Assembly: GCA_963796635.1 (NCBI GenBank)
Contig: CAWCMH010000001.1
Span: 1,045,769 to 1,109,768 of the forward strand
DNA length: 64,000 bases
DNA from: an uncultured Gemmatimonadales bacterium
Lineage (GTDB): Bacteria; Gemmatimonadota; Gemmatimonadetes; Gemmatimonadales; GWC2-71-9
Reading direction: 5' to 3'
The notes under the pieces are model-generated. The model saw only the letters and a program-made list of their open reading frames with translations, searched no databases and was not told the DNA's origin. Shown piece after piece: positions 30,293 to 60,621 of the stretch; positions within the stretch are counted from its first letter, which is position 1; each line of letters opens with the position of its first letter. The position numbers and the translations under genes are program-made.

Positions 30293-32452
30293 TCAGTGGG
30301 TGGCCCGCTGCTCCAGCGCGTCGATGTGCCACCCCGCCGGGTCGTGCAACAACGCGGCCCGGAAGGCGATCTGGCTCGATGGACTGTTGCCGCCACGCTG
30401 AGTCAGCACCAAGGCTAGCGTGAACGTCGCGGTCGCGCTGCCGCCCCCGGGTGACGACGTGATGGTGATGTCACCCACCTGCCGCACGCCGAGCGATTCG
30501 ACACCGTCGTGCCCGACCAGGTTGAATTGCGATTGCCATTCGCTGGCGCGGTCACCCGTGAGTCCAGGGTAGATAGCGCGCATCTGGTCGACGCTGCGCG
30601 CGCGGATCGCCGCGATGTACGACACCACCGTTGCGCGAACTTCGGCGCTGATCTGCGCCGGCGATGGGGGCGGTGGCGCGAGCGGGGGCACGACGATCGG
30701 CGACAGTTGGGTCGCCACCGGTTGACTGGACGTGAGTGCGGGAGCGGGTGGCGGGCTCGCCGCCGTGGTCGTTCCGCCCGGGATGGGCTGCGGGATGGAC
30801 TGTGGCCGCGACGCCGTGTCGCGCGCCGCGGAATCCGCGGCGCGTTTGCGGGTCGCACTGCGCGCACGCATCGATGAGTCGACCGTGGCGTGCGTCGCGG
30901 ACTTGAGCGGTCCATTCGCCGTCGAGCTGGCTGCAGCGGGCGGGAGCGCGGGAGGAGCGACCGGGACCGGGGCGTGGCTGGAGCCGGTGTCGCGGTGGGC
31001 CGCCGTATCTGGCGCCAGCGCGGCAGGACGTGCGGGCGCACGCTGGTGCATGACCACCCAGCCGATCGCGCCGGCCAGGAGCACGCCGGCGACGCTGGCC
31101 GGAACCGCCCATCGCGGGGTTCGCCGGCCCGCCCCGGCAGGAAGTACCGTCATCGGGAGCGATGCGAGCACCCCTTCGCACATCGCGGTGATATTGACCC
31201 GGCCGGGGGCGCGGGCCGTCACCATGCCGTTGGCGGTGACCGCGGCGACGGTGTCGTCGCTGGAGCTCCACGACACCGACCGTCCTGCCAGCGTGGCACC
31301 GGCGTCACTCCGCACCATGCTGGACAATGCGAAACGATCCCCCGCGGCGATGACATCCGGGGCACCGCTGATGCTCAGTTGCCCGACGCGCGGCCCTCCG
31401 AGTGGAAGCGGACTCACCGGCGCGCGAATTGCCGCCGCCTGGCGCGTCGACGGATCGGGCACGGCCAATCGGCCGAGCACGGCGCGCACCGGATCGCCTT
31501 CACCGATGGGCTGCGCCCCCAGCGCATCGAGTGCATCGCGCATGCTGTCGTATCGGTGGGCCGGATCCTTCGCAAGCATCTGCAGCACTGCCGCCTCGAG
31601 CGCGGGCGGACAATCGTCGCGCCGGGCGAGGATCGGTGGCGGCGGCGTCATCGTGTGCGCCTGCATCACGGCAAACGAGTTGCCGGTGAACGGCACGCTG
31701 CCGGTCAGGAGCTGGTACGCGACAATGCCGAGCGAATACAGGTCGGATGACCACGTCAGCGCGCTGCCGACGCATTGCTCCGGGCTCATGTACGCCGGGG
31801 TACCCACCATCGTCCCGGTCTGCGTAACGCCATCCGATTCGATCAACTTCGCGATGCCGAAGTCGGTGACGATGGCATTGCCGTCAGCGTCCATCAGGAT
31901 GTTCGCGGGCTTGATGTCCCGGTGAATCACGCCGCGCCGATGCGCGTAGGCCAAACCGCTGCCGACATGAAACAGGATCGCCCGGATCGCGTCGATCGGC
32001 ACCGTGCCGTGCGCGGCGAGTATGCCTTCGAGCGATCGTCCTTCGATGAACTTCATCACCAGGAAGTGGAGGTCTTCGATCTGTCGCACGCCGTGGACAG
32101 TGATGATGTTGGGGTGACTGAGATTCGCCACCGTCACGGCTTCCTGGCGAAACCGGTCGACCATGCCCGGGCCGAGGAAGAGCCCCGGGGCCATCACCTT
32201 GATGGCGACCAGCCGGTTCAGGGCGATCTCGTGGGCCAGGTAGACCGCGGCCATCCCGCCGCGGCCCAGTTCGCGCGTGACCTCGAATTCGCCAAGGGTC
32301 GCCGCCTTGAGCTGCGACACGATGCTCGCCCACGGCGACTCGTCGATGCCGCCGACCGCCACGGGCTGGCCGCACGACGAACAAAAGCGCTCGTCGGCAT
32401 GCAGCGGTGTCTGACAATGCGAACAGGCGGGCGGAGTGGTCGTCTCGGGCAC
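30293..32452 (-). CDS. Hanks-type Ser/Thr protein kinase: zinc ribbon, kinase, Big_2-like domain, TM, Pro-rich linker, NTF2-like C-terminal domain
   Basis: CSHCQTPLHADERFCSSCG; GRGGMAAVYLA..VAIKVM; HRDIKPANIL; DFGIAK; GTPAYMSPE. Then ..SSSDDTVAAVTANGMVTARAPGRVNITA and TM WAVPASVAGVLLAGAIGWVV. The start is uncertain: GTG 32452 was chosen, an in-frame ATG at 32590 would overlap the divergent gene, and the ORF itself runs to 32746. Confidence 0.85.
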   Translation of the reverse strand: MPETTTPPACSHCQTPLHADERFCSSCGQPVAVGGIDESPWASIVSQLKAATLGEFEVTRELGRGGMAAVYLAHEIALNRLVAIKVMAPGLFLGPGMVDRFRQEAVTVANLSHPNIITVHGVRQIEDLHFLVMKFIEGRSLEGILAAHGTVPIDAIRAILFHVGSGLAYAHRRGVIHRDIKPANILMDADGNAIVTDFGIAKLIESDGVTQTGTMVGTPAYMSPEQCVGSALTWSSDLYSLGIVAYQLLTGSVPFTGNSFAVMQAHTMTPPPPILARRDDCPPALEAAVLQMLAKDPAHRYDSMRDALDALGAQPIGEGDPVRAVLGRLAVPDPSTRQAAAIRAPVSPLPLGGPRVGQLSISGAPDVIAAGDRFALSSMVRSDAGATLAGRSVSWSSSDDTVAAVTANGMVTARAPGRVNITAMCEGVLASLPMTVLPAGAGRRTPRWAVPASVAGVLLAGAIGWVVMHQRAPARPAALAPDTAAHRDTGSSHAPVPVAPPALPPAAASSTANGPLKSATHATVDSSMRARSATRKRAADSAARDTASRPQSIPQPIPGGTTTAASPPPAPALTSSQPVATQLSPIVVPPLAPPPPSPAQISAEVRATVVSYIAAIRARSVDQMRAIYPGLTGDRASEWQSQFNLVGHDGVESLGVRQVGDITITSSPGGGSATATFTLALVLTQRGGNSPSSQIAFRAALLHDPAGWHIDALEQRATH

Positions 32453-32564: not shown

Positions 32565-34286
32565 ATGCTGCGTGACAACGGCACCGCCATGCTGAATGTG
32601 GTGCCCAACCCGGCGGTGTCGGCTGACGAAGCGTTTCTCCGCGCCGTGCAGCAGGCGGCGGCGGCCGACTTTACGGTCCTCGGCGAGATCGGACGCGGCC
32701 CGGACGGCGTCATCATGTATCTGGCCCGCGACACCCAGAGCAACATGCTCGTCGCGCTGCGGCTGCAGCGCGAGGGCCATCAGGCCAACGAGTTCACCCT
32801 CGAGCTCGCTCGGCAGCTTGACAACTCGATGCCGGCTCCCGAGAGCAAGTGCTTCAAATGCAGCCACGCCATCCGCGGCTGGGCGCGCTTCTGCAGCTAC
32901 TGCGGTGCCGACCTTTCCGGGGCGGCCGCATCCGGCACCGCGGGCGAAAGCGACGCGATGCTCGCCGCGGTCAAGGAGGCCGTGGCCGGTGATTACGAGG
33001 TCCTGGGGCAGATGTCGCGCAGTGAAGGCGGCGGGGCCGTGTATTTCGCTCGCGACCGGCACACCAAGCGGATCGTGGCGCTCCGGCTGCAGCGCGATGG
33101 CGAGGGCGAGGAATTTTCCGTTGGACTGACCTCTGCGCTGAAGCCGCTGGCGGCGTCGCTCGGCGTGAAGCCGGTGGCGACGCAGTTGCTGTCATCGGTA
33201 GGCGCGCCGCCGCCAGTCGCACCACCGGTCAGCCCGCCGGCCCTGAGCGCGCCGCCTCCCATTCCCGGCCCACCACCTGTGCCACCACCCCGGCCGGCGC
33301 GGCGTGGCATCGGCACGATGACGCGCCGTTCGAAGCTGTTGGTGGCAGTGGGCGTGGGCGCGCTCCTGATCTTGATCATCGTGATCGCGACGTTGCCATC
33401 ATCGGGCGCACCCGCTGCATTGGCTGCGGCGCCCGTCGATTCGACGCCCGCCGCACCACCGCCATCCGCGCCGGCGGAGACGCCGCCTCCGCCACCGAGC
33501 GCGGCTGAGGCACCGGCCGTCGCGACACCGGCGCCGGTCGCCGCCGTGCCACGCGTCGCCACGGTGCTCGTCCATGGACTCCCCGCCGATGCGAGCGTGA
33601 GTGTGGACGGAGAACCCCACAGCGGACGCCGCGTCGTGCTGCGCCCGGGGGTGCATCTGTTCGCGGTGCGAGTGGTCGGATATCTGCCCCGGGAGGACAC
33701 GCTCGAGCTGCGCCCGGGCGAGACACGCGAGTGGTCGCCGACGCTCAGCGCCGATCCGTCGCGAATCGTGGCGCATGCTGCGCCGCCACCACCGCCCGCA
33801 GCTCACACCGACGCCGCGGCGCGCACCACCGCGAACGCCGCCGCGTGTGATCAGGACGTCAACAGCAAGATGTGGACACAGGCGGCCGAGGTATGCACCG
33901 CCGCTGCCGTGAACGGCAATGCCGGGGCGCAACGCAACCTCGCGTCGCTGTACGACCACGGGCATGGCGTGCACGGCAGTGACGACGATGCCGCGCGCTG
34001 GTACAGCAAGGCGGCCAGCGGCGGCGATCGCGAAGCGATGTACCAGGTCGCCATGGAGTACGAGCACGGCCACGGCGTCAAGAAGGACGAGTCAAGTGCG
34101 GCGCAGTGGTACGCCCGCGCCGCCGATGCGGGGCATCCGTTGGCACAGTACGCCCTCGGCGAGGCCTACGAGAAGGGTCATCTCGGGCTGCACAAGGACA
34201 AGGCGAAGGCGCTGGAGTGGTACCGCAAGGCTGCCGCGCAGGGCAACAAGGACGCGGCAGACAAGGTTCACGACTTGTCCCGGTAG
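32565..34286 (+). CDS. Module copy A, gene 1: cytoplasmic 2x degenerate kinase-N-lobe-like segments flanking a zinc ribbon, then TM, then periplasmic PEGA and 4 Sel1 repeats
   Basis: ATG 32565 after ggagg. DFTVLGEIGRGPDGVIMYLARDTQSNMLVALRLQREG and DYEVLGQMSRSEGGGAVYFARDRHTKRIVALRLQRDG flank KCFKCSHAIRGWARFCSYCG. TM is LLVAVGVGALLILIIVIATL; PEGA-like is VLVHGLPADASVSVDGE..GVHLFAVRVVGY. Sel1 repeats include AQRNLASLYDHGHGV, AMYQVAMEYEHGHGVKKD and AQYALGEAYEKGHLG. Confidence 0.7.
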   Translation: MLRDNGTAMLNVVPNPAVSADEAFLRAVQQAAAADFTVLGEIGRGPDGVIMYLARDTQSNMLVALRLQREGHQANEFTLELARQLDNSMPAPESKCFKCSHAIRGWARFCSYCGADLSGAAASGTAGESDAMLAAVKEAVAGDYEVLGQMSRSEGGGAVYFARDRHTKRIVALRLQRDGEGEEFSVGLTSALKPLAASLGVKPVATQLLSSVGAPPPVAPPVSPPALSAPPPIPGPPPVPPPRPARRGIGTMTRRSKLLVAVGVGALLILIIVIATLPSSGAPAALAAAPVDSTPAAPPPSAPAETPPPPPSAAEAPAVATPAPVAAVPRVATVLVHGLPADASVSVDGEPHSGRRVVLRPGVHLFAVRVVGYLPREDTLELRPGETREWSPTLSADPSRIVAHAAPPPPPAAHTDAAARTTANAAACDQDVNSKMWTQAAEVCTAAAVNGNAGAQRNLASLYDHGHGVHGSDDDAARWYSKAASGGDREAMYQVAMEYEHGHGVKKDESSAAQWYARAADAGHPLAQYALGEAYEKGHLGLHKDKAKALEWYRKAAAQGNKDAADKVHDLSR

Positions 34287-34300
34287 CGGCCGGCAGCGCG

Positions 34301-35401
34301 ATGCCTTCCTATCTCGTCGAACTCACCACGCCGAACGGGCCGGAGCGCATCCCGTTCACGATCGACCATGACCGCCCGCTCGGTCCGCAGATCACCCAGA
34401 TCATCGAAGAGCTCCGGCAGCGCAACATCGTGCTGCAGGGCGGCCGTGACGACGAACTCGGCGTGTACTGGATGGGCCGGGACCTCGACATGCTACAGGT
34501 CCCGGCGGCGCTCGGCATTAACCCGGGGCGCCCGATCGAACTCCGCATGCGCGTTCGCACCGCGCCCAGGGTCGAAGACACCTCGCTTCCGTGGGGCGTC
34601 AGCGCCGCTGCGATCCTCGGTTACCTCGCCGGGGCGGTTGCGTGGGTGATGATCACGATGCTCTGGATTCCGGGCCGTGTCACGACTGCGTACAACCATC
34701 TGGACCAGGTCACCATGGCACTGGTCGGAGCGGTGGTCGGTGCGTTCACGCTCGGAGGCGCCGCCCTTCGTTCGCGGGGCGTGGTAGCGCTGGGCCTGGT
34801 TGCGGGGGCGTTGCTGGGCGGTCTTGGATCGGGCCTTGGCGCGACCGCGGCGCTGCAAATCGTTGGCGGGACGTCGGTCCGGGGATTCGTCATCGCTCGC
34901 GCGCTCGGATGGGCGCTGGCCGCCGGCACGTGCGCGGTACTCCTGGCGTGCTATCAACTACCGATCACGCTGCGGCGCGTGCTCGAGAGCGCGGTGATCG
35001 GCCTGATCGGCGGCGCGACGAGTGGCGTCATCTTCGCGTTGCCCGGTCCCTCCGATATTTGGCAGGGTGTCGCATGCGCCGTGTTTGGCGTCGCGGTCGG
35101 CGTCGCGGTGGCAGGCCCGTCGCTCTGGGGTGCAGTCGCAGTGGTCGAGCAGCAGCCAGTCGGTCGTCTGGTGCCGGGCATGCTGGGGCTTCGGGAGTGG
35201 GCGATACACGACGACGCATCAATCGACGTCGACGCCGTCACACTCGGGTGTCAAGCGCGTCGCGTCGCCGTGTATCCGCCGCCCGAGGGCGCCTCGTTGG
35301 ATGGGCGCGAACTCCGGCAACCGGCGTTCGTCGACCACACCGCCGTCATTGACGTCTCGGGTCGCTGCTACCACGTGCGACGGCTGTCGAGGGAACCGTG
35401 A
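34301..35401 (+). CDS. Module copy A, gene 2: soluble N-terminal domain (beta-grasp-like?), polytopic Gly/Ala-rich TM region, FHA-like C-terminal domain
   Basis: ATG 34301. MPSYLVELTTPNGPERIPFTIDHDRPLGPQITQIIEELRQ..PIELRMRV, then about 6-7 hydrophobic helices, then ..LREWAIHDDASIDVDAVTLGCQARRVAVYPPPEGASLDGRELRQPAFVDHTAVIDVSGRCYHVRRL. Paralog of 57516-58343. Confidence 0.55.
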   Translation: MPSYLVELTTPNGPERIPFTIDHDRPLGPQITQIIEELRQRNIVLQGGRDDELGVYWMGRDLDMLQVPAALGINPGRPIELRMRVRTAPRVEDTSLPWGVSAAAILGYLAGAVAWVMITMLWIPGRVTTAYNHLDQVTMALVGAVVGAFTLGGAALRSRGVVALGLVAGALLGGLGSGLGATAALQIVGGTSVRGFVIARALGWALAAGTCAVLLACYQLPITLRRVLESAVIGLIGGATSGVIFALPGPSDIWQGVACAVFGVAVGVAVAGPSLWGAVAVVEQQPVGRLVPGMLGLREWAIHDDASIDVDAVTLGCQARRVAVYPPPEGASLDGRELRQPAFVDHTAVIDVSGRCYHVRRLSREP

Positions 35402-36750
35402 GCCGGGCAGGCCTGCTGCTGTGCGCAACGTTGATGGCGGCGCGGGCGGCAGCGCAAGGGCCAGACAGCGCCGTGCCGCTGCGCCTGGTTCGCTGCGCGG
35501 CCAAAGCCGATGTGCCGTGTCTCGAGGCGCGCGTTCCGCTCGATGCGCCCAGCCTCGCGCTAATCGCCAAGCTCGATTCAACCACCGAGGCGCACGCGTG
35601 GGTCGGCGACCTGGCAGGCCGCATGCTGGTAGGCCCCGCGGTTGCGACGGCGCGCAGTGTGGTGCCGCCATTGCGCCTCCTGATCCTGCTCGATCGCAGC
35701 GGCAGCATGATCGGCGAGGGGATCGCCTACACCCGCAGCACACTACGCGAGTTTGTCGAAGGCCTCGACAGCGCCAGCGTACGCGTGGCCGTTGCGGGCT
35801 TCGAGAGTCATGCCGTTGCCGACGGGATTGCGGCGGCCGAGTTCGTCACGCCCCACGCGGCGGCCGAGGCGCTGGCGGCGTTGCCCAAACCGGATCCGCG
35901 CGCCAACACCGCGTTGTACAGCGCCCTCGTGGACGGCAGCACCCGGGTGGCGCATGCGACGGCGCAGGCGCCCGGGACGCAGGGCGCGATTCTGCTGGTC
36001 ACCGACGGTCGCAACGATGTCGGCCACGCCGGCGACGATCCTGGACTGCTGACCGGCGCCGCCGGTCTCACGGCGGCCGTGCAGGCAGCCGCCACGGCGC
36101 ATCAACGGGTGTGGATCATGGGCGTGGGCGCCGATGTCGCCGCCGACACGCTCGCGCTGCTGGTCGGCGATCACGGCAGCGCCACCGTCGCGAGCCTCAA
36201 TCCCAACGTGATGGCCGAGCGCCTGCAACAGGTGTCGCGCGAGTTGCGCGGCGCGCGCGACCTGCTGTTCGGGATGCCGACCGGTGGCGAAGTGACGCTG
36301 GCGCGGACCGCATGGCGCGGGAGCGCGGCGGTGTGGGTCGGCAATCACGCGGTCCTGAGCCGCACGTTGACATGGCGGCCGCCGTTGTTCGCGCTGCCCG
36401 CGTATCGTGGCGTCGCGAATGCCGCCGAGCTGACGCCCGCGTTGAGTGCGGCATTGACGGCGGGCCCCGGCACCAACGTCCGGCTGTTGTTCGCGTTGTT
36501 TCTCGGGCTGGTCGGGGCGGCATTGTGGATCCTGGTGCCGCGACTGCTCTGGATCCGGGCTGCGGCGCCGATTGCGCCGGAGATTGCGTCGGCACCGCGG
36601 GTTGCGCCGACCCCGGCCGCACCAGAGGCTGCGCCCGCTCCGGCGGCCGACTCCGCGGGCGGGCTCCGCACCGATGTCACCGAAGTGGCACCGCGCACCG
36701 CCGCCGATGTGACCAACCAGACTGCCCGCCGAACCGCGCCGGCTCGCTAG
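35398..36750 (+). CDS. Module copy A, gene 3: secreted von Willebrand A domain protein with an intact MIDAS, a C-terminal TM and a short conserved cytoplasmic tail
   Basis: GTG 35398 (GTGA overlap). Signal peptide LLLCATLMAARAAAQG. MIDAS LLILLDRSGSMIGEG, NTALYSAL, ILLVTDGRND. TM is LLFALFLGLVGAALWILV and the tail ends ..DVTNQTARRTAPAR. Paralog of 58343-59671. Confidence 0.75.
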   Translation: MSRAGLLLCATLMAARAAAQGPDSAVPLRLVRCAAKADVPCLEARVPLDAPSLALIAKLDSTTEAHAWVGDLAGRMLVGPAVATARSVVPPLRLLILLDRSGSMIGEGIAYTRSTLREFVEGLDSASVRVAVAGFESHAVADGIAAAEFVTPHAAAEALAALPKPDPRANTALYSALVDGSTRVAHATAQAPGTQGAILLVTDGRNDVGHAGDDPGLLTGAAGLTAAVQAAATAHQRVWIMGVGADVAADTLALLVGDHGSATVASLNPNVMAERLQQVSRELRGARDLLFGMPTGGEVTLARTAWRGSAAVWVGNHAVLSRTLTWRPPLFALPAYRGVANAAELTPALSAALTAGPGTNVRLLFALFLGLVGAALWILVPRLLWIRAAAPIAPEIASAPRVAPTPAAPEAAPAPAADSAGGLRTDVTEVAPRTAADVTNQTARRTAPAR

Positions 36751-37073
36751 CCTTTCTTCCACTCGCGCGCGTCGCGATCGGGAAAACTGATCCGGCAGTT
36801 GCCCGGGTCAATGCCTTCGACGCGTACCTTGCCCAGGTTGTCGAGCAGTCCGCCGATGATGCTTCCGTCGGGCAATGTCAATTCGAAGCGCTCGTTCGGC
36901 AGCGGCTGGCCATCGGGCGTTTTCAGTTGAATACCGATCCAGTCCTGCCGGGTCGGATCGGCGGTGACCACGGGCGACGGACCCGGTGGTGTGCTGGTTG
37001 CCGGCGTGGTGCCCGCGGGTTGACACGGCGTGCAACCGCCCATGGCGTCGGCCTGATCGCTCGACACGTTCAT
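36747..37073 (-). CDS. Hypothetical 108-aa protein translationally coupled to the DUF4123 gene (Pro/Thr-rich linker plus small beta domain)
   Basis: The ATG at 37073 overlaps the DUF4123 stop (ATGA). MNVSSDQADAMGGCTPC..PPGPSPVV..WIGIQLKTPDGQPLPNERFELTLPDGSIIGGLLDNLGKVRVEGIDPGNCRISFPD. The stop shares the CTAG at 36747-36750 with the convergent vWA gene. Confidence 0.5.
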   Translation of the reverse strand: MNVSSDQADAMGGCTPCQPAGTTPATSTPPGPSPVVTADPTRQDWIGIQLKTPDGQPLPNERFELTLPDGSIIGGLLDNLGKVRVEGIDPGNCRISFPDRDAREWKKG

Positions 37074-37624
37074 CGGACCGCCTTGCGATACCGGACGCGC
37101 GGTGCGGGTCCGCCTGCGGTCCCAAAATGCGCCGGGCGCGCCAGTCGTACGCCGTACGTCGCGGCGTCGACCCAACCGATTGCGTCGGCGGGACCGAAGA
37201 TGTCGGCGAGTTGCGGTGCGTCGCAGGTCGTCAGGAACTTTGCCATCACGCGCGGATCGTAGAACCGGAAATACCACGGCTCGCCGGTGGGGCCATCGAC
37301 CAGCAGGAAGCGTCGCAGGTGCGTGCGCAGCGCGGCGATGCCGACATTCGTGACGATGAAGATGCCCCACGGTTCGGTCCACATCGCCTGCGTAAGCCAG
37401 TCGACCAGCGCGGCATCGGCCCGGGCCAGATACGGCGCGACGGCCCACAACCGCTCCTGGGACTCGCCCTGATACAAGGGCAGCGCGTCGTCCCCGAGCT
37501 CCCGAACCTTGGCCGGCACACGCGGCTCGTCGCACGCGTCGAGCACGACATGAAGTTCGCCGCGTTCGGCGTGCGCGCGGATCGCGGCGACGCCGGTGTC
37601 CTCGTAGCGAATCAGGTCGGGCAT
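37070..37624 (-). CDS. DUF4123-family T6SS effector adaptor/chaperone (Tap/Tec-like)
   Basis: ATG at 37624. ..LHVVLDACDEPRV..LPLYQGESQERLWAVAPYLARAD..PWGIFIVTNVGIAALRTHLRRFLLVDGPTGEPWYFRFYDPRVMAKFL matches the DUF4123 pattern (aPyLv..., HLR..l.v....g....fRfyDPRvl). Confidence 0.8.
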   Translation of the reverse strand: MPDLIRYEDTGVAAIRAHAERGELHVVLDACDEPRVPAKVRELGDDALPLYQGESQERLWAVAPYLARADAALVDWLTQAMWTEPWGIFIVTNVGIAALRTHLRRFLLVDGPTGEPWYFRFYDPRVMAKFLTTCDAPQLADIFGPADAIGWVDAATYGVRLARPAHFGTAGGPAPRVRYRKAVR

Positions 37625-37700
37625 GGAACTAATCTCCGCAGCGGGGGGAGCCAATGCAACAGGTCTGGACAGCCCTTCGTCCGGGGGCGAGATTCGGATC

Positions 37701-38099
37701 ATGTTTGCTCCCATCGCGCGCGTCGGCGACATGCACATCTGCCCGATGCAGACCCCGGCCGTGGTGCCGATTCCCCACGTCGGTGGCCCGGTACTGCCGC
37801 CCGGCGCGCCGACCGTCATGGCCGGGGGTTTCCCCGTCGCCGTCGTCGGCGGCATGGCCGTGTGCGTGGGACCACCTGACGTGCTGGTCGTGGGGGCGTT
37901 CACCGTGCTCGCCGAAGGACGTCCGGTGGTGCGTGCCATGGATACGACGGCCCACGGCGGCATGGTGCCGGCGGGTTTCCCGACCGTGATGGTGGGCGAC
38001 TCTGGCGGCGCGGGCAGTCCGCAAGGGGCCACGATGAGCGCCGCGAAGGCGGGCGGATCGGCATTCACTCGCGCCGATTGCGACACGGCAGGGACGTGA
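37701..38099 (+). CDS. PAAR-domain spike-tip protein
   Basis: ATG 37701; the ORF opens at 37623, but the PAAR core starts here. MFAPIARVGDMHICP..HVGGPVLPPGAPTVMAGGFPVAVVGGMAVCVGPPDVLVVGAFTVLAEGRPVVRAMDTTAHGGMV..PTVMVG. Confidence 0.8.
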   Translation: MFAPIARVGDMHICPMQTPAVVPIPHVGGPVLPPGAPTVMAGGFPVAVVGGMAVCVGPPDVLVVGAFTVLAEGRPVVRAMDTTAHGGMVPAGFPTVMVGDSGGAGSPQGATMSAAKAGGSAFTRADCDTAGT

Positions 38100-39486: not shown

Positions 39487-39489
39487 CGC

Positions 39490-40638
39490 GTGCTCGAAGT
39501 CGCCGGGTTCGGTGCCAAGCGGATCGTGCTCGCGCGCTTCTTTCGCGCGGTGTCCGGTGATCCCGTCAACGACGCGCCCGACGTCGACGAACGCGGCTAT
39601 GCCGCGCCATATCGGGGACCAATCGTCGCCGTCGCGGCAGGCCGGACCGTGCGGGTCGCGCTCGCACGCATCAATCTCGAAGACGCGACGCCGTTGTTCG
39701 TGCAATCGAGTGACACGTCCGTCGTGACCGTCGCCGATCCGGCCGCGGGGCGACTGCCCGCCGCACACCGGGCGGAGATCAGCATCACAGGCGTCGATGG
39801 CGGGACCGATCATCGGGAGGCGAAGGTCGAGCTCCACATCGGCACGCCCAGTGGCCCGCTCATCCACACGCTGCACGTGCTGGTGCTCAAGCCACTGGTA
39901 GTGAGGATGACGCCACATCAGGTCACGATTGCGAGCGCCACGACCGCGGGCACGACACCAGTCGCCGACGTCGCCGCGATCATGGCGAAGGTGGCTGACA
40001 TCTGGGTGCACGCGGGGGTGACCATCACGGTGCTGCCGATCCAGGCGCATACCGTCGTGCTTCACACCGCCAATGTGTTGAACGACCACCCGCTGCCGGG
40101 GGAGGTGGGGACCATCGTCGCCAACCAGTGGCCCGGTGGCGCAACCAACTGGATCCCCGCCACGATCAACGCGTACTTCGTCAACCAGATCGGCACCGGC
40201 AATACGTTGGGGTACGGGTTCAGCCGGCAGTCGTTCAGCCGGTTCGGACTGCCGAATCCGGGTATCATCCTCGGCGATCGCACCGCCTCGACGACGCGCA
40301 GCGGACTGATTCATTACGCCAACGATCTCGCGCACGAGGTGGGACACTTCTTCACGTTATGGCACGCCGGGGGCAAGGAACCGCCCAACGAACGCGAGGA
40401 CACCTGGTCGCGGCGGATGTTGATGCACAACTTCAACGGCATGCGCGGCCACGACCCGTGGCCGGCCGCCATGTCGGACGGACAATTGTTCGCCCAGCGT
40501 CCGCGTTTCAACGACGCGGGCTACGGGACGCTGCGCCGCGGCTGCATGATCACGAACCGTCATCTCGTGCAGTTCAGCGGTGACGGCGAGTGCCTGGCGG
40601 CACGGGCGGCGATTCTCTCGGCAGCAGGGCCATATTGA
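39490..40638 (+). CDS. Zinc metalloprotease-like protein (HExxHxxxxxH, metzincin-type); candidate T6SS effector
   Basis: GTG 39490. No signal peptide. Big_2-like SSDTSVVTVADPAAG..EISITGVDGG. Catalytic-site-like LAHEVGHFFTLWHAGG. Confidence 0.6.
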   Translation: MLEVAGFGAKRIVLARFFRAVSGDPVNDAPDVDERGYAAPYRGPIVAVAAGRTVRVALARINLEDATPLFVQSSDTSVVTVADPAAGRLPAAHRAEISITGVDGGTDHREAKVELHIGTPSGPLIHTLHVLVLKPLVVRMTPHQVTIASATTAGTTPVADVAAIMAKVADIWVHAGVTITVLPIQAHTVVLHTANVLNDHPLPGEVGTIVANQWPGGATNWIPATINAYFVNQIGTGNTLGYGFSRQSFSRFGLPNPGIILGDRTASTTRSGLIHYANDLAHEVGHFFTLWHAGGKEPPNEREDTWSRRMLMHNFNGMRGHDPWPAAMSDGQLFAQRPRFNDAGYGTLRRGCMITNRHLVQFSGDGECLAARAAILSAAGPY

Positions 40639-51584: not shown

Positions 51585-54281
51585 ATGGACCTGAATCGGT
51601 TGTCGATGGACCTTACCGGCGCCATCGAAGAGGCCCGCCGGGTTGCCGCGCGTTCGGGCGCAGCATACATCCGGCCCAGGCACCTGATGCTTGCGCTGCT
51701 GGCCGACAATGGCGCGCTTACCGTCGTCGCGGGGCGGCTGGGATTGGATGCCGCGATGGCCCGCCGGTTTGTCGACGGGGTCACCGACAGCGACAACGAA
51801 GGCAAGCTGGTGCCCGGGCAGCAACCGATCGCCAGTCGCGCGTTGCGCGATCTGCTTGACCGGGCCACCGCGCTTGCCGACAAGCGCGGCGTCCGCATCG
51901 TCGGCCCGATCGACATTGCCCTCGCCGCAACGCAATCGCCCGGACTGCCGGTGGGCGGTGCGCTGGTCGACGCCGGCTGGTCACCCGACCGCCTCGACAC
52001 CGCGGTGGAGAGTCCGGTCGCGAACCAGCCAGCACCGGCGGCGGCCGACAACACCGACACTCCGGATGCGCCGCAGGGCAGCCAGCTGGCGCGATTCTGC
52101 CGGGATCTCACCCAGGCGGCGCGCGATGGCAAACTTGCGCCGGTGATCGGGCGGGACGTCGAGCTTCGCAGCGTACTGCAGACGCTGCTGCGCCGATCGA
52201 AGAACAATCCCGTGCTGGTCGGTGACCCCGGCACCGGCAAGACGGCCGTCGTGGAGGCGCTCGCGCAGCGGATCGTGGCGGGTGACGTCCCCGCCTCGCT
52301 GCGCAATTGCCGCGTGATGGCGCTGGACCTGACGGGCCTCGTCGCGGGCGCCAAGTATCGGGGTGAATTCGAGGAGCGCATCAAGGCCGTCGTCGACGAA
52401 GTGCGGGCCGCCGAGGACGTGATCCTGTTTCTCGATGAGCTGCATACGCTTGTCGGCGCGGGCGGCAACGCCGGCGGCATGGATGCCGCCAACATTCTCA
52501 AGCCGCCGTTGGCGCGCGGCGAATTGCGCTGCATCGGCGCCACCACGCATGACGAGTACCGCGAGTCGATCGAGAAGGACGGTGCGCTCGCCCGTCGCTT
52601 CGAGAAGGTCATTGTCGATGAACCTGACGACGAAACGGTCCTGGCGATGTTGCGGGGCGTGAAGTCGAAGTTCGAGGCGCACCATGGCGTGCGCATCACC
52701 GAAGACGCGCTGCAAGCCACCGTGAAACTTGCGCGGCGCCACCTGCGCGACCGCTTCTTCCCGGACAAGGCGTTCGACGTGCTTGACGAGGCCGCCGCGC
52801 GCCTGCGCATGCAGCACGAATCGAAACCCGACCGGATCGACGAACTGGAACGCACCCTGGTCCGGCTCGAAGGGCGCCGCGCGGCGCTCGAACTCGGCGG
52901 GAAGAAGTCGGGCGACATCGCCGCCATCGACAAGGACATTGCCACGCATCGCGCCGAGCTCGCCGGACTGCTCGATCGCTGGAATGCGGAGCGCGAAGTA
53001 TCCAGCGGCCTGCAGCAGACCCGCGCCGCCCTGGAAGCCAAGCAGCAGGAACTCGCCGCCGCCGAATCGGCGGGTGATGTGGCGCGCGTGGCCGGCTTGC
53101 GGCACGTCGAGATCGAGGGTTTGCTGCGCCAGGAAGCGCAATTGTCGTCGCGACTCGAGGAACTCGCGACCCAGGGGCTGCTGATTCCGCAGGAGGTCGG
53201 TCCGACCGATATCGCCGACGTGGTGGCGCGGCGCGCGCGCATTCCGTTGTCGCGCATGATGGAGAGCGAACGGGAGCGCCTGCTCAAGCTCGAAGCGCGC
53301 CTTGCCGAACGCGTGATCGGTCAGGCGGAGGCGGTCGAAACCCTGGCCGAAGCGGCACGACGCATGCGCGCCGACCTGCGCAAGAAGCGCAAGCCGGCCT
53401 CATTCCTGTTCGTCGGTCCCACCGGCGTGGGCAAGACCGAACTCGCCAAGGCCCTCGCGGGCGCGCTGTTCGACGACGACAGCGCGCTGATCCGGATCGA
53501 CATGGCGGAGTACAAGGATTCCGGATCGGTGTCGGGGCTGATCGGGTCGCGACCGGGGCTGGTCGGGTCAGAGCAGGGCGGCTTCCTCACGGAACAGGTG
53601 CGCCGGTCTCCCAACTCGATCGTACTGTTCGATGAAATCGAGAAGGCCCATCCCGAAGTGATCGACATCCTGCTCGGCGTGCTCGACGAAGGCCGTCTCA
53701 CCGACGCCAAGGGCCGCTTCTGCGACTTCACCAACACGATCATCCTGCTGACCTCCAATCTCGGCGTGAAGGAGGCGGTCGCCGCCACCGACGACCTGGC
53801 GCAGCGCAAGGAGATCATCATGAAGGTGGTGCAGAGCACGCTGCGGCCCGAGTTGTTCAACCGGTTGAGCGGCGTCATCCCGTTCAACGCACTCGACGTG
53901 CCAACGCTGCGCGAGATCGTGCGCATCAACCTGCGGGGCGTGGCGGCGCAGGTGGCTGAGCAGCATCAGGCCACGCTCGAGGCCGATGAGGACGCGGTGG
54001 CGTTGCTGGCCGAGCAGGCCTACGATCCCGCGTACGGTGCGCGCCCGGTCGAGCGAACCATCGATCGCATGGTGCTGTCGGATCTGTCGCGGCTGATCAT
54101 CGGGGGCGAGGTGCAGCCCGATGCGCTGGTGCTGCTCACGCCCGAGAATGACACCATCGCCATTCTCGTCGGCGACGAGGCGGAGGTGCGCGCTGCGGCG
54201 AACGACATTCGCGCGGCGCGTCCGGCCCCCACGCCGCCGCCAGTCGGCGACGCCACGCAGCCCGCGAGCGCTTCCGCGTGA
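51585..54281 (+). CDS. clpV: ClpV/TssH AAA+ ATPase (ClpB family)
   Basis: ATG 51585. 898 aa. Clp_N-like N-domain; Walker A GDPGTGKT and GPTGVGKT; Walker B ILFLDELH and [12 protein letters not shown]; a coiled-coil middle region. Located at the end of the T6SS core. Confidence 0.8.
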
Positions 54282-55198
54282 AAGCCGTGTGCCTGCTGGT
54301 CTGGGTGTGCGGCGCGTCGGTCGCCATCGGCGCACCCGCGGCGGCACAGGACGTGGTCCAGAGCCAGACCGAGAAGGACGCCCTGCTCCACTTCTGCCAG
54401 CAGACTGACCTCACCGCGCCGGCGACGGTCGAAGGCGCCAAGGACCGCAGCGACTGCTGGAAGCGGATGCAGCTGGAAGGGATGTCCGATCCGGTGGTCG
54501 ATGCAAAGTACCAGGCTGCGGTGTCGGCCTACGACGCGGCTGTCGCCGCCGATTCCGTGCGCCACAGTCGCGATTCGAGCACGACCGCGATCGACGCGCG
54601 CATGAAGGCGGTCGAGAATTCCATCCGGGCGCGCAACCTCGACGATGCCGACAACTCGGTCAACGACATTCTTGCGATTCAACCCCAGAATCAGCGTGCA
54701 CTCGCCTTTCGCGACCGCATCGCCGCGCTCAAGCGGGCTCGCCAGCTGAAGATCACGCTGTTCGCGATTGGCGCCGCGGTGCTGGTGCTCGCCGCCGGCC
54801 TTGGCGTCTTCGCCAAGAAACTGGCCGAGCGGCACGGTGCCACCGTCGCACAACGAAAAGTCGACGCCGCCAATCGCAAGGCGATGGTCAAGGTCGTCGA
54901 TGGAATCGGTCGCGGAAAGTTCTACCCCATCGAAAATGCCGTCTTTCGCATCGGGGCGGCGGCTTCCGACAAGGTCGATGAACGCAATGACCTCGTGCTC
55001 AGCGACTCGGCCGGCGCCATCTCGCGTTTTCACTGCTCGATCGTGCGCCGCGACGGACGGTTCTACCTGATCGATTCCTCGCTCAACGGCACCGAGCTCA
55101 ACGAGGACCTACTCGACCGTGGCGAGGATCATCGCCTGACCGACGGCGACGAGTTCACCCTGGCCAGCGTCACGCGCCTCAAGTTTCTGGTGATGTAG
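54278..55198 (+). CDS. Module copy A: signal peptide, periplasmic domain, TM and cytoplasmic FHA domain
   Basis: GTG 54278 (GTGA overlap with the clpV stop). [23 protein letters not shown]. Periplasmic [85 protein letters not shown]. Paralog of 59668-60621. Confidence 0.75.
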
Positions 55199-56360
55199 CG
55201 CGCTGCTCCGCATCGAGCGAGACGGTAAAGCGGTCGTGCCGTCCGCCGAACCGGTCAATGTGGAGATGGAGTCCGGTACTGAGTCGGTCGAGCAGTCCGG
55301 CGCGAATCGCCGAGCGGATCTGGTCCTGCAGCACCGCATCCTGCGAAAAATCCTTGACGCGAATGCCGCGTGCGCGACACTGCTCCGTGATGAAGTGCAC
55401 CTGCTCGGGCGGCAGGTCACGAGTCCGCAGGTCGAGTGCGCCACCCGGACCATACAAGGCGACATGTTCCGCATGATCGCGACCGGACACGACAATCGCG
55501 GTGCCGAACTGCGCCTCGAACGCCGAATCGACCTGCGCAAACGCCGCGGCAAACTGCGCCACCGTCAAGGTCGCCGTCCGCAGCTGGTCGGGCGTCAACG
55601 TGCTGGCCTTCCCGGAGTAAGCCTTCGGCACCGTCAGCCGCCGGTCACGATAGATCGCGGCGATCGACGCCTCCAGCGCTTCGATACGCGGCTTGACCTG
55701 GGGGTGGTTGCGCAGATCGCTCAGCGCCAGCGTGTTTACACCGCGAGCGAATTCCTGTCCCGCAACATCGCCAAGCCCGAGTTCGAGCAGCGTGCTGCCG
55801 CGTTCGATGTGATCGTAGGCCACCACCAGCAGGCTGTCGAATCGGTCAGCCTGTTCGTCGGTCATCACACCAGAAGCACGATCGGCGCGCCGCAAGGCGA
55901 ACCAGATCGCGCCTCCCGCCGCCGCAAGCAGGACAACCACCAGCACGGTGGCGATGATGGCACCCCACGGCCAGCGCCCGCTGCCATCCCCCCGATCCCG
56001 GTGTCGGCGACGACGTTTCGGACGTGGCGCGGGGGCAGCCGGCACCGGAGCCGGCTCGGGTCGCGCGACACCGCTGCGAAAACAGTATCGATATCCGGGC
56101 GCGATCTCGATGATGGCGTCATCGGGCAGGCGGACCGTTCCCGCGAGCGGCCGCCCGTTGACGGACGCGGGTCCGTTGCCACCCACGATCCACCAGCCGT
56201 CTTCCCGTTCCATCAGCCCCGCGTGATGGGCTGCGACGCCGGGAACGAAGAGTTGAATGGCGCAATCGGCGGCGCTGCCGATCCACAGCGGCGCACCGCC
56301 GTGCAGCGCCAGCGGGGTACCGCGGGTCGGTGGCACGGGCTCGAGCGATGGCGTCGCCAT
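55179..56360 (-). CDS. Module copy A: N-terminal FHA domain, TM, and a periplasmic domain with a possible LAS/M15-peptidase-like motif set
   Basis: ATG at 56360. PLWIGSAADCAIQL..AAHHAGLMEREDGWWIV..VNGRPL (FHA). TM WGAIIATVLVVVLLAAAGGAIWF. The C-terminal IVVSGRDHAEHVALYGPGGALDL..GLHLHIDR weakly resembles SxHxxGxAxD...HxH. Paralog of 61152-62420. Confidence 0.65.
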   Translation of the reverse strand: MATPSLEPVPPTRGTPLALHGGAPLWIGSAADCAIQLFVPGVAAHHAGLMEREDGWWIVGGNGPASVNGRPLAGTVRLPDDAIIEIAPGYRYCFRSGVARPEPAPVPAAPAPRPKRRRRHRDRGDGSGRWPWGAIIATVLVVVLLAAAGGAIWFALRRADRASGVMTDEQADRFDSLLVVAYDHIERGSTLLELGLGDVAGQEFARGVNTLALSDLRNHPQVKPRIEALEASIAAIYRDRRLTVPKAYSGKASTLTPDQLRTATLTVAQFAAAFAQVDSAFEAQFGTAIVVSGRDHAEHVALYGPGGALDLRTRDLPPEQVHFITEQCRARGIRVKDFSQDAVLQDQIRSAIRAGLLDRLSTGLHLHIDRFGGRHDRFTVSLDAEQRATSPET

Positions 56361-56463
56361 CGGAGGATATTAAGCGGCGTGGACCGAAACTGCCGGGTCG
56401 GATTGGCGACAGATTCCCCGGCGGCGTAGGTTTGAGCGCGCCGCCCGACGCAGGGAGCAGGAG

Positions 56464-57519
56464 TTGACCGACCCAATCCACCGTGACGACGTCCCTCCCA
56501 CGCTCATCCAGACCAGCCCGGTCGTCGCAGCGTCCAGCGGTCGCCGGGCGGTGATCGGCGGCGGCCTGGTCGTCGTAGCCGCGTTGCTGCTGGCGTTGGT
56601 GCCGGCTGACAACAAGGCGCCGATCGGCGCAGTCGCGGTGCCGGTGCATCAGGCCGTCGCGCAGGGGCCCGACACATCGTCGACACCGGTCGTGCCCCCG
56701 CCGCTCGCGGCGCCCGCGGCCGCCGTGGCGCCACCACCGCCGCCCCCGGCTCCGCCGGTGAATCAGGCACCGCCGGCGAAGGCGGCCCAGGCTCGTGCGA
56801 TCATTCTTGCCGACGTGTCTCCGGCGCACGCCCGATTCACGATCGACAACCGCCCATTCCGCACCGGTCGCGTTGCAGTGATTCCGGGCCGGCACGTGCT
56901 GGCGGCGTCGGCTCCCGGGTTTGTCACCCAGAGCGACACGCTGCGAATCAGTGCCGGCGACACCCTGCGATGGAAGCCGCAGCTCGCCCGGGAAATCGCC
57001 GCCGCGCCGCCGACGGAGCGCACGCCCCCGCCTGCGGTTACGCCGCCGGCGCGATCCCCGGCCCGGACCGAGTCCGATTGTCAGTCCAGCGTCGACCGGA
57101 GTGACTGGGATGTCGCGTTCGCGGCGTGCAGCCGCGCGGCCGCCGCCGGAAGCATCCCGGCCCGCCGCAATCTCGGCGCCCTGTACCAGCACGGGCACGG
57201 CGTTCGCCACAACGACGACTCCGCCGTGGCATGGTACCAGCTCGCCGCGCAGGCGAATGATGCCGAAGCCATGTACGAGCTGGGCGACGCCTACGAACAC
57301 GGGCACGGCGTGAAGAAGGATCCGTCTGCCGCACTCGAGTGGTACGGTCGGGCCGCCAACCGTGGCAGCGCCGCAGCGCAGTACACGCTCGGCCAGGTGT
57401 ACGAGAAAGGACATCTCGGCGTCGCGAAGGATCGTGCGCAGGCGCTGGCGTGGTACCGCAAGGCCGCAGCGCAACACTACAAGGACGCGGACGACCGCGT
57501 GCACGATTTGTCCAAATGA
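56464..57519 (+). CDS. Module copy B, gene 1: TM, periplasmic PEGA and 4 Sel1 repeats (lacks the N-terminal kinase-lobe/zinc-ribbon region of copy A)
   Basis: TTG 56464 after ggagcaggag (start uncertain). TM AVIGGGLVVVAALLLALV. PEGA-like IILADVSPAHARFTIDNRP..GRHVLAASAPGF. Sel1 repeats ARRNLGALYQHGHGV, AMYELGDAYEHGHGVKKD and AQYTLGQVYEKGHLG. Confidence 0.7.
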   Translation: MTDPIHRDDVPPTLIQTSPVVAASSGRRAVIGGGLVVVAALLLALVPADNKAPIGAVAVPVHQAVAQGPDTSSTPVVPPPLAAPAAAVAPPPPPPAPPVNQAPPAKAAQARAIILADVSPAHARFTIDNRPFRTGRVAVIPGRHVLAASAPGFVTQSDTLRISAGDTLRWKPQLAREIAAAPPTERTPPPAVTPPARSPARTESDCQSSVDRSDWDVAFAACSRAAAAGSIPARRNLGALYQHGHGVRHNDDSAVAWYQLAAQANDAEAMYELGDAYEHGHGVKKDPSAALEWYGRAANRGSAAAQYTLGQVYEKGHLGVAKDRAQALAWYRKAAAQHYKDADDRVHDLSK

Positions 57520-58343
57520 GAGCGGAGTCATCCCGTTGGATACCAAGCGGCATCACGGCTGCTGCCACGATCGGCGCCGCCGCGGGTGCCGTCGCGTGGT
57601 TCCTCGCGTCGGGTTGGTCCCAGGTCGTGAGCGGGTACATCCGTCTGGACCAGTTGACGATGATGACGCTCGGCGCGGTGGCAGGGGCGACGGCACTCGG
57701 CGGCGAGGCGTTACGCCGTCGAGAACCGATCGGGACGGCGCTGATCGCCGGGCTGATCGCCGGCGGCGTCCCGGCGCTCATCGTGGCGAGCGTCTTCGCG
57801 TCGTTCTCGGCGCTCGGCGGCACGGGTTTCCTGGTGCAGCGGGTGGTCGGATGGTGCTGCGTCGTCACGGCGACGGCGGTGGCGCTCGCGGCCGCCCGGC
57901 CGATGGCAATTCGGTCGCACCTCTCGGAAACTGCCGGCGTCGCCGCCCTGGGTGGGGCGATGTGCGGCCTCATCGTGCTGCTTCCCGGCGCCGTCGAGTT
58001 CTGGCTCGCGATCGCATTCACGGCCGCTGGTGCGACCATCGGGATTGCCGTCTGCGGTCCGGCACTGTGGCGTGCCGTGGCGATCGTCGAGCACGCGCCT
58101 CCGCGCAACAGCATCCCGCGACTGCTCGCATTGCGCGAGTGGTCGCTTGCTCCAGGCGACGTGGTCGCGCTGAGCACGGCACAGCTCAGCTGCGCAAACG
58201 GGCGGGTTGCCCTGTACCCGCCTGCCGGCGGCGCGACCGTCAACGGCATCCTGAAGACGGGCGGGATCTACCTGCGCACGTCGTCGCTCATCGCCGTGGG
58301 CGGTCAACGATACCTGGTGCAGTTGCGAATGGAGCAGACGTGA
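57516..58343 (+). CDS. Module copy B, gene 2: polytopic Gly/Ala-rich membrane protein with an FHA-like C-terminal domain
   Basis: ATG 57516 (ATGA overlap). About 6-7 hydrophobic helices, then ..LREWSLAPGDVVALSTAQLSCANGRVALYPPAGGATVNGILKTGGIYLRTSSLIAVGGQRYLVQLRM. Confidence 0.55.
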   Translation: MRAESSRWIPSGITAAATIGAAAGAVAWFLASGWSQVVSGYIRLDQLTMMTLGAVAGATALGGEALRRREPIGTALIAGLIAGGVPALIVASVFASFSALGGTGFLVQRVVGWCCVVTATAVALAAARPMAIRSHLSETAGVAALGGAMCGLIVLLPGAVEFWLAIAFTAAGATIGIAVCGPALWRAVAIVEHAPPRNSIPRLLALREWSLAPGDVVALSTAQLSCANGRVALYPPAGGATVNGILKTGGIYLRTSSLIAVGGQRYLVQLRMEQT

Positions 58344-59671: not shown

Positions 59672-60621
59672 GCCAGGCGATGGGGACGTGGCGTGCCGCC
59701 GCGGTGCTGGTCGGGACGATCGCCGCGTTGCGATCCACGCCGTTGGTGGCGCAAACCCCGGCGGGTCAGGGAACCCAGGCCGTGCACGAACAGGAAACGG
59801 CGACGCTGCTGCACTTCTGCGAACAACTCGATCAAACCTCCGAGCACACGGTGCAGGGCGTCCGCGACCGCACGGATTGCTGGAAGCGGATGCAACTCGA
59901 AGGGATGGACGATTCGACCGTCGATGCCCGGTACCGCGCGGCGGTGGCCGACTATGACGCGGCGGTCCGCTCGGACTCGGCGCGCCAGGCCGGCGATTCC
60001 GCGTCTGCCAGCATCGACACCCGACTCGCGGCGGCGCAGCGCGATGTGACGGCGCACCAGTATGCCGACGCCGCGCGCATCGTCGCGAGCGTGCTGGCGG
60101 CAGACCCCGCCAATCAGCGGGCGCTGGCGGCGCGGGATCGCATCGCTGCGCTCGCGCGCGCGCAGCGCTATCGGCGGACGCTGCTCGCGCTGGGGGCCGC
60201 GGTCCTGGTGCTGGCGCTGGTGTTTGGCGCGCTGGCCCCGTGGCTGGCGCGGCGCCACGGCCGCGAGCTGCAGCGGCGCACGGCCGACGCCTCGAAACAG
60301 CAGGCCGTCGTCGAGATCGTCGACGGCGTGGGCCGCGGCAAGCTCTACACCATCGACGGACCGATTTTCCGGATCGGATCGGCCGAATCCGACAAGCCGG
60401 AGGAGAAGAATCATCTCGTGCTCAGCGACGGTGACGCGTTCATCTCCCGCTATCACTGCGCCATTGTCCGCAAGGAAGGCAAGTTCTTCCTGATCGATTC
60501 CTCGCTCAACGGCACCTACGTCGACGACGAACTGCTCGAGCGCGGGGAACATCGGTTGCTGGACGACGGCTCCGAGTTTTCGCTCGCCGGAATGGCCCGC
60601 CTGAAATTCCTGATGATGTGA
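59668..60621 (+). CDS. Module copy B: signal peptide, periplasmic domain, TM and cytoplasmic FHA domain
   Basis: ATG 59668 (ATGA overlap). [85 protein letters not shown]. Confidence 0.75.
   Translation: MSQAMGTWRAAAVLVGTIAALRSTPLVAQTPAGQGTQAVHEQETATLLHFCEQLDQTSEHTVQGVRDRTDCWKRMQLEGMDDSTVDARYRAAVADYDAAVRSDSARQAGDSASASIDTRLAAAQRDVTAHQYADAARIVASVLAADPANQRALAARDRIAALARAQRYRRTLLALGAAVLVLALVFGALAPWLARRHGRELQRRTADASKQQAVVEIVDGVGRGKLYTIDGPIFRIGSAESDKPEEKNHLVLSDGDAFISRYHCAIVRKEGKFFLIDSSLNGTYVDDELLERGEHRLLDDGSEFSLAGMARLKFLMM

Follow-up and report, generated by a model that had tools for sequence, protein, structure and literature searches.

The two von Willebrand factor A (vWA) proteins encoded in a 64,000-nucleotide stretch of an uncultured Gemmatimonadales genome (GenBank assembly GCA_963796635.1, contig CAWCMH010000001.1, positions 1,045,769 to 1,109,768; hereafter the window) both end in a predicted cytoplasmic tail that contains the element E-x-x-P-R-x5-T, and the threonine of this element is invariant among all homologs that we aligned. 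Sequence comparison indicates that the tail is under strong purifying selection. It is plausible, judging from the sequence and its surroundings, that the tail is a cytoplasmic short linear motif, which links a periplasmic vWA protein to the Ser/Thr-kinase/FHA control of a type VI secretion system (T6SS). We favor a reading in which the threonine becomes phosphorylated and the phosphothreonine (pThr) tail docks an FHA domain, and we assign a probability of roughly 40% to it. The two proteins, vWA1 and vWA2, and the segments of their tails map as follows (TM, transmembrane; ORF, open reading frame; pLDDT, predicted local distance difference test score).

35398 to 36750, plus strand: vWA1, 450 amino acids, defined by its ORF and a Pfam VWA match (E 1e-8).
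36478 to 36561, plus strand: TM helix of vWA1, residues 361-388 as assigned from the AlphaFold2 secondary structure, with conserved P381, R382, and W385.
36562 to 36657, plus strand: Pro/Ala-rich linker of vWA1, unconserved (mean pairwise identity 0.23) and predicted to be disordered (pLDDT <50).
36658 to 36681, plus strand: GLR(R/T)DV(T) sub-motif of vWA1, residues 421-428, mean identity 0.46, present in vWA1-type and Longimicrobia-type tails and not in the vWA2 clade.
36682 to 36714, plus strand: core motif of vWA1, E429-x-x-P432-R433-x5-T439 (EVAPRTAADVT), with the Thr codon at 36712-36714.
36715 to 36747, plus strand: clade-specific extension of vWA1, NQTARRTAPAR, with a family-wide identity of 0.24, kept in homologs P0002-P0009 and in the vWA2 clade.
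about 58367 to 59671, plus strand: vWA2, paralog of vWA1, with no Pfam VWA match.
59603 to 59635, plus strand: core motif of vWA2, EAEPRSPDDIT, with the Thr codon at 59633-59635 (T423).
59636 to 59668, plus strand: extension of vWA2, HQTARRTALQR; the last 20 residues are 82% identical within the vWA2 clade, compared with 44% for the whole protein.

Positions 36706-36750 translate to DVTNQTARRTAPAR and positions 59627-59671 to DITHQTARRTALQR, each followed by the stop codon, which confirms the two tails and the positions given for them in a first-pass annotation of the window. The same annotation had described a divergent linker followed by convergent tails, and this is borne out by pairwise alignment: 12 of the 53 columns ahead of the tail are identical between vWA1 and vWA2, as opposed to 10 of 14 in the tail. 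The proteins share 35% sequence identity (BLASTP, E 1e-54), and 14-residue windows with at least 9 identities cluster in three islands only, the N-terminal Cys-pair motif, the juxtamembrane WRPPxFALPAYxGVA, and the C-terminal tail. Thirteen residues are identical over the last 22 codons and 8 of them are specified by different codons, and the tail identity is thus held at the protein level rather than reflecting a DNA repeat or recent gene conversion. A non-functional resemblance, be it due to chance, to recent gene conversion, or to a DNA-level constraint such as an overlapping gene or a terminator, is effectively excluded by these codon differences and by the ortholog alignment. It is true that vWA1 and a convergent ORF overlap by 4 nucleotides at the vWA1 stop codon, and that the vWA2 stop codon overlaps the start of the next gene, but these overlaps cover the last 1-4 nucleotides only, and the motif is kept in >120 homologs of different lineages.

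A homolog search of 5.8 billion proteins returned 73 homologs, of which 63 were aligned, down to ∼32% identity. Seven columns are fully invariant in this alignment and eleven in a 48-sequence subset, and P432, R433, and T439 belong to both sets; E429 is conserved at 95% among the 63 homologs. The mean pairwise identity of the core (residues 429-439) amounts to 0.67, compared with 0.23 in the linker, 0.24 after T439, and 0.75 in the best windows of the protein, which surround the metal ion-dependent adhesion site (MIDAS). From 118 copies of the motif we derive the consensus V-x-E-A-P-P-R-[KR]-P-x-[DE]-[VI]-T, in which P-R at positions -7/-6 and E at -10 relative to the threonine are the further conserved positions; an acidic residue precedes the threonine at -2 in 108 and Val or Ile at -1 in 104 of the copies. 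The acceptor position is Thr in 63/63 aligned homologs and in 128/128 copies of a looser form of the motif, and it is never Ser, Ala, or Val (12 non-Thr matches to the looser form represent chance matches in Pro-rich tails of distant homologs). FHA domains are specific for threonine (PMC6509490), and the invariant Thr, never replaced by Ser, fits this specificity.

These alignments also redraw the element that had been noted first. The conservation expected of orthologs is found, in that the core E-x-x-P-R-x5-T is universal, whereas the QTARRTA stretch that caught attention is only clade-specific: it is kept in vWA2 orthologs and in the nearest vWA1 orthologs, and elsewhere gives way to x-E-[FML]-P-A... 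or A-K-V-S-R-P (vWA2-clade tails compared: P0044-47, P0060, P0076, P0080, P0085, P0103, P0107, and P0113). The tail is thus a real element, but its core begins 8 residues farther upstream (E429, position 36682) than had been proposed, and the interval first highlighted holds only the D-V-T of the core. Likewise, the first of its three threonines (T439) is the invariant one, and the other two are not universally conserved. A profile search of 1.84 billion representative sequences yielded 182 proteins with E below 1e-30; distant family members have other tails, which again read acidic-x-Thr-[VI]-[FYV] (DDETIYIPP, GDATVFIPP, PGEHTIVRP). Among the 29 proteins of the T6SS island described below, the strict motif occurs in the two vWA tails only.

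vWA1 consists of a signal peptide, an N-terminal domain with a Cys pair, a vWA domain with an intact MIDAS, a β-sandwich, one TM helix, and the cytoplasmic tail. An AlphaFold2 model calculated from the 48-sequence alignment (mean pLDDT 86.7) contains an N-terminal hydrophobic helix (residues 3-18), a confidently predicted ectodomain, the TM helix (361-388), and a disordered linker (395-423, pLDDT <50), after which the pLDDT rises locally to 79 in the tail (431-440). A Foldseek search with the model returned ITIH1, ArnB in the ArnAB complex (8s05, E 3.3e-11, 357 columns), and 4fx5, all of which combine a vWA domain with a β-sandwich. A signal peptide and one TM helix, together with the invariant Cys pair of the ectodomain and the model itself, lead us to infer a periplasmic vWA domain and a cytoplasmic tail. 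The FHA domains of the locus, which follow or precede a TM helix on its cytoplasmic side, and the kinases are predicted to share this compartment with the tail. A C-terminal sorting signal (LPXTG, PEP-CTERM, or GlyGly-CTERM), in which the motif directly precedes the TM helix and only a short basic tail comes after it, can be ruled out, as the tail motif follows the helix by 40-50 residues. In the vWA2 clade the MIDAS is degenerate, with DRSPQ or DRGxx in place of DxSGS (vWA1 residues 99-103) and with T171 and D203 lost; the vWA domain of this clade is below Pfam detection, yet its cytoplasmic tail is better conserved than that of vWA1.

The window comprises housekeeping genes up to ∼26.6 kb, followed by a T6SS island (27000-62420) that encodes TssB, TssC (PF17541), VgrG, TssG, TssK, ClpV, PAAR, and DUF4123 proteins. 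The inventory drawn up in the first-pass annotation (four Pfam FHA domains, two FHA-like tails of membrane proteins, and two Hanks kinases) is present in full. The genes surrounding vWA1 and vWA2 are the following.

30293 to 32452, minus strand: kinase1, with a Zn-ribbon, a Hanks kinase domain (Pfam Pkinase, E 2.7e-48), Big_2, and one TM helix.
34301 to 35401, plus strand: membrane-a, with an N-terminal domain of ∼95 amino acids, a multipass region, and a C-terminal FHA remnant; it overlaps the start of vWA1 by 4 nucleotides.
54278 to 55198, plus strand (Pfam FHA ORF 54152-55198, E about 4e-14): TM-FHA-a, directly after ClpV, 54% identical to TM-FHA-b.
55179 to 56360, minus strand (Pfam FHA ORF 55182-56369): FHA-TM-X-a, with a Pfam FHA domain, 51% identical to FHA-TM-X-b.
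57516 to 58343, plus strand: membrane-b, paralog of membrane-a lacking its N-terminal domain, with a C-terminal FHA remnant.
59668 to 60621, plus strand (Pfam FHA ORF 59671-60618): TM-FHA-b, in which a signal peptide and a periplasmic helical domain are followed by a TM helix and, on the cytoplasmic side, a TagH-like FHA domain (Pfam E 3.9e-14); its ATG overlaps the vWA2 stop codon (ATGA).
60618 to 61280, plus strand: kinase2, a 220-amino acid Hanks kinase (Pfam Pkinase, E 1.2e-27, matched from profile position 23) with an ortholog in the related locus L005.
61152 to 62420, minus strand: FHA-TM-X-b, with a Pfam FHA domain of degenerate sequence (IGA ... GVGARHA) at the N terminus, followed by a TM helix and, in the periplasm, a domain of unassigned fold.

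The signaling genes form paralogous pairs (vWA 35%, membrane 37%, TM-FHA 54%, and FHA-TM-X 51% identity), except for kinase1 and kinase2, which are neither paralogs nor orthologs of each other. Module A comprises kinase1, Sel1-a, membrane-a, vWA1, TM-FHA-a, and FHA-TM-X-a, and module B comprises Sel1-b, membrane-b, vWA2, TM-FHA-b, kinase2, and FHA-TM-X-b. We compared these modules in a context census of 11 loci; a locus search with a 10-sequence alignment contributed four true orthologous loci (L010-L013), its other 21 results being unrelated vWA proteins. The order kinase1-Sel1-membrane-vWA1 is kept across genera, in L001 and L010-L012, where kinase1 is 70-77% identical. In L003 and L005, the vWA homolog has TM-FHA, kinase2, and FHA-TM-X as its neighbors, and L005 retains the order vWA2-TM-FHA-kinase2-FHA.

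The gene of the membrane partner precedes the vWA gene in every related locus retaining upstream sequence and abuts or overlaps it by a few nucleotides wherever gene calls were checked (window and L001-L007). The partner was recovered by tblastn in all loci except L006, where alignment identified it; L008 begins at the vWA gene, and the short contig L007, whose upstream gene fragment ends in a Pfam FHA domain, was outside the tblastn census. The GLRRDV sub-motif of the tail (36658-36681) co-occurs with the N-terminal domain of the membrane partner (34301-34590): both are present in module A of the window, in L001, L003, L004, and L010-L013, and in four fusion proteins, and both are absent from module B of the window, L005, and L006. 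This co-occurrence, which reflects few independent evolutionary events, hints at a second, separate contact.

An invariant Thr with an acidic residue at -2 and an aliphatic residue at -1, a flexible tether beneath the membrane, and neighboring Hanks kinases and FHA domains are together compatible with a phospho-acceptor that would be read by a membrane-tethered FHA domain. In the model that we propose, the vWA/β-sandwich ectodomain would reside in the periplasm and pair with the product of the overlapping upstream gene, a multipass membrane protein, and the disordered linker (∼35 residues) would hold V-x-E-A-P-P-R-[KR]-P-x-[DE]-[VI]-T just beneath the inner membrane. A Hanks kinase of the locus would phosphorylate the invariant Thr, with kinase1 as the candidate for vWA1 and kinase2 for vWA2. 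The pThr, together with the clade-specific downstream residues (QTARRTA in the window), would then be read by the membrane-tethered, TagH-like FHA domain of TM-FHA, and this event could license T6SS assembly in the way that TssL pT14 recruits Fha in Agrobacterium.

The concept of an FHA domain reading the pThr of a membrane-bound T6SS component is a known one. The Agrobacterium tumefaciens pair of TssL pT14 (site DLPpTVVEI) and Fha (PMC3953482) resembles the present system in placing a single critical Thr on a short cytoplasmic stretch of an inner-membrane protein associated with the T6SS, in the presence of a Hanks kinase and a TagH-type FHA protein in the cluster, and in the D-x-T-V-[VFY] tails of distant vWA family members, which are similar to the TssL site. 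In contrast, the motif in the window is carried by a bitopic vWA protein and stands at the very C terminus, whereas the TssL site is N-terminal; TssL, TssM, and PppA are undetected, phosphorylation is a prediction, and the FHA protein is membrane-anchored and lacks an equivalent of R30. The archaeal ArnB (Sulfolobus acidocaldarius), whose complex with ArnA is among the best Foldseek matches of vWA1, likewise combines a vWA domain with a β-sandwich, and its C terminus is phosphorylated and then bound by the FHA domain of ArnA (PMC6509490, PMC12852372). Phosphorylated threonines such as those of IDT*VEQT*R and ET*T*RR (asterisks follow the phosphorylated Thr) lie in this C-terminal region of ArnB, to which the FHA domain binds once the kinase has acted. 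ArnB, however, is cytoplasmic with its phosphosites in a folded four-helix bundle, whereas vWA1 has a predicted periplasmic vWA domain and its Thr in a tail after the TM helix; the Zn-finger-FHA partner of the Arn system was not found among the island ORFs, and the present system is bacterial and T6SS-linked.

A third point of comparison is PpkA from the Pseudomonas aeruginosa H1-T6SS, a transmembrane Hanks kinase that bears a periplasmic vWA sensor domain (PMC3224232) and thus also couples vWA sensing with Hanks-kinase signaling in a T6SS cluster. In the window, the vWA domain and the kinases are separate polypeptides and the order of parts is reversed, with the ectodomain first and the tail last, so that by analogy the system looks like PpkA split into a vWA sensor and separate kinases. 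The TerY-P triad similarly couples vWA, kinase, and FHA genes; it includes PP2C and is not T6SS-linked. The same neighborhood of vWA, Hanks kinase, and FHA genes is seen in the Deinococcus DRA0331-0334 vWA-STPK-FHA-PP2C operons (bioRxiv 10.64898/2026.01.23.701218), which differ in including PP2C and in having no T6SS link; the text consulted describes no conserved C-terminal Thr tail for such modules.

Several observations weigh against docking to an FHA domain, most of all the pockets of the candidate readers. The canonical pThr-binding arginine of the G-R motif occurs in no FHA domain of the locus or of related loci. In the TM-FHA family, 104/104 sequences have G-[S/A] at this position, an assignment read from the family alignment and from a manual comparison to GarA; a four-sequence TM-FHA profile could be aligned to GarA and Rad53, leaving the G-R region unaligned. 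The N-terminal FHA domains of FHA-TM-X read I-G-A and V-[GA]-A-[RH]-H-A and lack both the Arg and the Ser. In distant lineages the C terminus of the membrane partner is a genuine Pfam FHA domain (L006, 9051-10004, 24.8 bits; L007, 2-439, 24.9 bits) that reads V-G-S and V-A-x-R-H-A, again without Arg and Ser, and in Gemmatimonadota and Longimicrobia (window 35200-35398 and 58150-58340) a deletion of ∼33 residues removes the S-R-x-H and N-G loops from this protein altogether. By comparison, A. tumefaciens Fha needs R30 and S46 to bind TssL pT14 (PMC3953482). The predicted structure of the tail is a short helix (residues 435-446) and not an extended peptide. FHA domains usually read a footprint of about -3 to +3, and the invariant P-R at -7/-6 falls outside it. 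Within this footprint, the +3 residue is clade-dependent (T/S, F/M/L, V, or E), which could reflect co-evolution with a reader domain or, alternatively, no FHA reading at all. Finally, parts of the pathway are undetected: there are zero Pfam matches to TssJ, TssL, TssM, or TssN/O/P among the island ORFs and zero to PP2C or another phosphatase among those scanned, PP2C is absent from the precomputed Pfam matches of L001-L008, and TagQRST and PppA were undetected in the island. The earlier suggestion of a kinase-substrate tail that recruits FHA partners hence draws support from the invariant Thr, its predicted cytoplasmic location, the synteny with kinases and FHA genes, and the precedents, and is weakened by the Arg-less FHA domains and the lack of a PP2C match.

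Many of these points would also be accommodated by a phospho-independent docking, in which E-x-x-P-R-x5-T acts as a linear motif or short helix and forms a structural handle of a membrane-associated complex, with the degenerate FHA-like domains, the cytoplasmic parts of the membrane partner, or a baseplate subunit such as TssK as candidate partners. The locus FHA domains, devoid of the Arg and mostly of the Ser, resemble YscD-type phospho-independent folds, and many of them also match PF16697; the motif is long, with its P-R six to seven residues away from the Thr; the tail is locally ordered in the AlphaFold2 model; and neither TssJ/L/M nor a phosphatase is matched in the island. In L003, L004, L006, and L008 (Longimicrobia, Acidobacteriota, and other loci), tssB-tssC directly follow the membrane+vWA pair, as would suit a structural component, and natural fusions of the membrane and vWA proteins exist. 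Nevertheless, a Thr that is not exchanged for Ser, Ala, or Val in 128 copies would be unusual for a purely steric contact, Hanks kinases are syntenic with both paralogs, and strong selection has retained four of the five canonical FHA residues in TM-FHA: S-R-x-H (S-R-Y-H-C) and S-L-N-G-T (S-S-L-N-G-T) are present at >90% in 104 sequences. We regard phospho-independent docking as somewhat less likely than pThr-FHA docking, but as a serious competitor of it; should it apply, the motif would still mark a key contact of the envelope complex. The best NCBIfam match of the TM-FHA domain is TIGR03354 VI_FHA (domain-level E 2.9e-11, below the full-length cut-off), and MORN matches returned by a single-sequence phmmer search of this domain against the PDB were judged spurious.

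The tail could also serve as a docking or substrate motif for a kinase with no FHA reading involved, either by recruiting kinase2 or kinase1 to form a split PpkA-like receptor kinase, or by a phosphorylation that alters the stability or oligomerization of the vWA protein. PpkA unites a periplasmic vWA domain and a kinase in one chain (PMC3224232) where the window has separate syntenic genes, and invariant residues distant from the Thr would suit a docking function. Kinase2 contains the catalytic Lys, HRD, and DFG but is devoid of the Gly-rich loop and of β1-β2, as are its orthologs. With neither a Gly-rich loop nor, in the window, a TM helix, it probably depends on a partner. The tail moreover bears some likeness to both activation segments. 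The kinase1 activation loop (31800-31860, ESDGVTQTGT) resembles the tail sequence AADVTNQTARRT (DGVTQTGT against DVTNQTARRT), and the kinase2 activation segment (61020-61080), GEPPRAVPPGWEEDSVGT, has an EPPR...VGT that echoes the EAPPR...DVT of the tail. Both similarities are short and may be due to chance in a Pro/Arg/Ala-rich proteome, with PPR found in 8 other island proteins. As kinase1 and kinase2 are non-orthologous and yet the motif is common to both tails, and as the conserved neighboring membrane-tethered FHA domains would be left unexplained, we consider such a kinase-only function improbable.

The favored pThr-FHA docking can be extended to the secretion system as a whole. The membrane+vWA pair may be a core component of an undescribed T6SS subtype that occurs in Gemmatimonadota, Longimicrobia, and Acidobacteriota, has a TssC matching PF17541, and gives zero TssJLM or TssNOP matches; the literature that we searched describes no subtype with these components. 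In its most specific form, which we rate as rather unlikely, the membrane protein, the vWA-TM-tail protein, TM-FHA, and FHA-TM-X would make up an envelope complex, the tail would provide the handle for a kinase-licensed docking of the baseplate, and the reader would be an Arg-less FHA pocket that recognizes pThr. The vWA carrier, the motif, the split vWA/kinase arrangement, and the Arg-less FHA domains are likewise not described in the literature searched. If pThr docking holds, it would represent a third independent arrangement of T6SS control by threonine phosphorylation, after Fha1 and TssL-pT14, in which a separate periplasmic vWA sensor and a kinase are joined through a ∼20-residue cytoplasmic motif, and it would allow one to test how FHA domains without the canonical arginine can recognize pThr. 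With one invariant residue in a tail of ∼60 residues, the motif provides an entry point to a T6SS type of soil phyla that has no recognizable TssJLM/TssNOP.

In the related locus L005 (1-11335), module B (Sel1, membrane, vWA2-like, TM-FHA, kinase, and FHA) is situated directly between fabF and mqnC without T6SS genes, whereas in the window (25380-63688) a T6SS island of ∼30 kb including module A separates fabF from module B. Judging from gene order, the difference points to an insertion or loss of the T6SS island, and the comparison shows, at the level of gene content, that module B need not be encoded together with T6SS structural genes. For the periplasmic domain of FHA-TM-X, which is well conserved between the paralogs and occurs in L003 and L005 as well, searches of Pfam, NCBIfam, and PDB sequences gave no match.

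A small ORF (36747-37535, minus strand) converges on vWA1 and has the 4-nucleotide overlap with its stop codon; next to it come DUF4123 (37070-37600, minus strand) and a divergent PAAR gene (37623-38099, plus strand). The protein encoded by 39487-40638 (plus strand) contains an HExxH motif (LAHEVGHF), matches no family, and could be a candidate effector. The cytoplasmic N terminus of Sel1-a (32565-33250) contains two copies of a kinase N-lobe fragment (β1-β3), with a Zn-ribbon ahead of the second. Both copies show homology to the kinase1 N terminus (E 9e-9 and 5e-4) and carry Arg in place of the catalytic Lys, and it is conceivable from these similarities that Sel1-a acts as a decoy or complements the N-lobe parts missing from kinase2.

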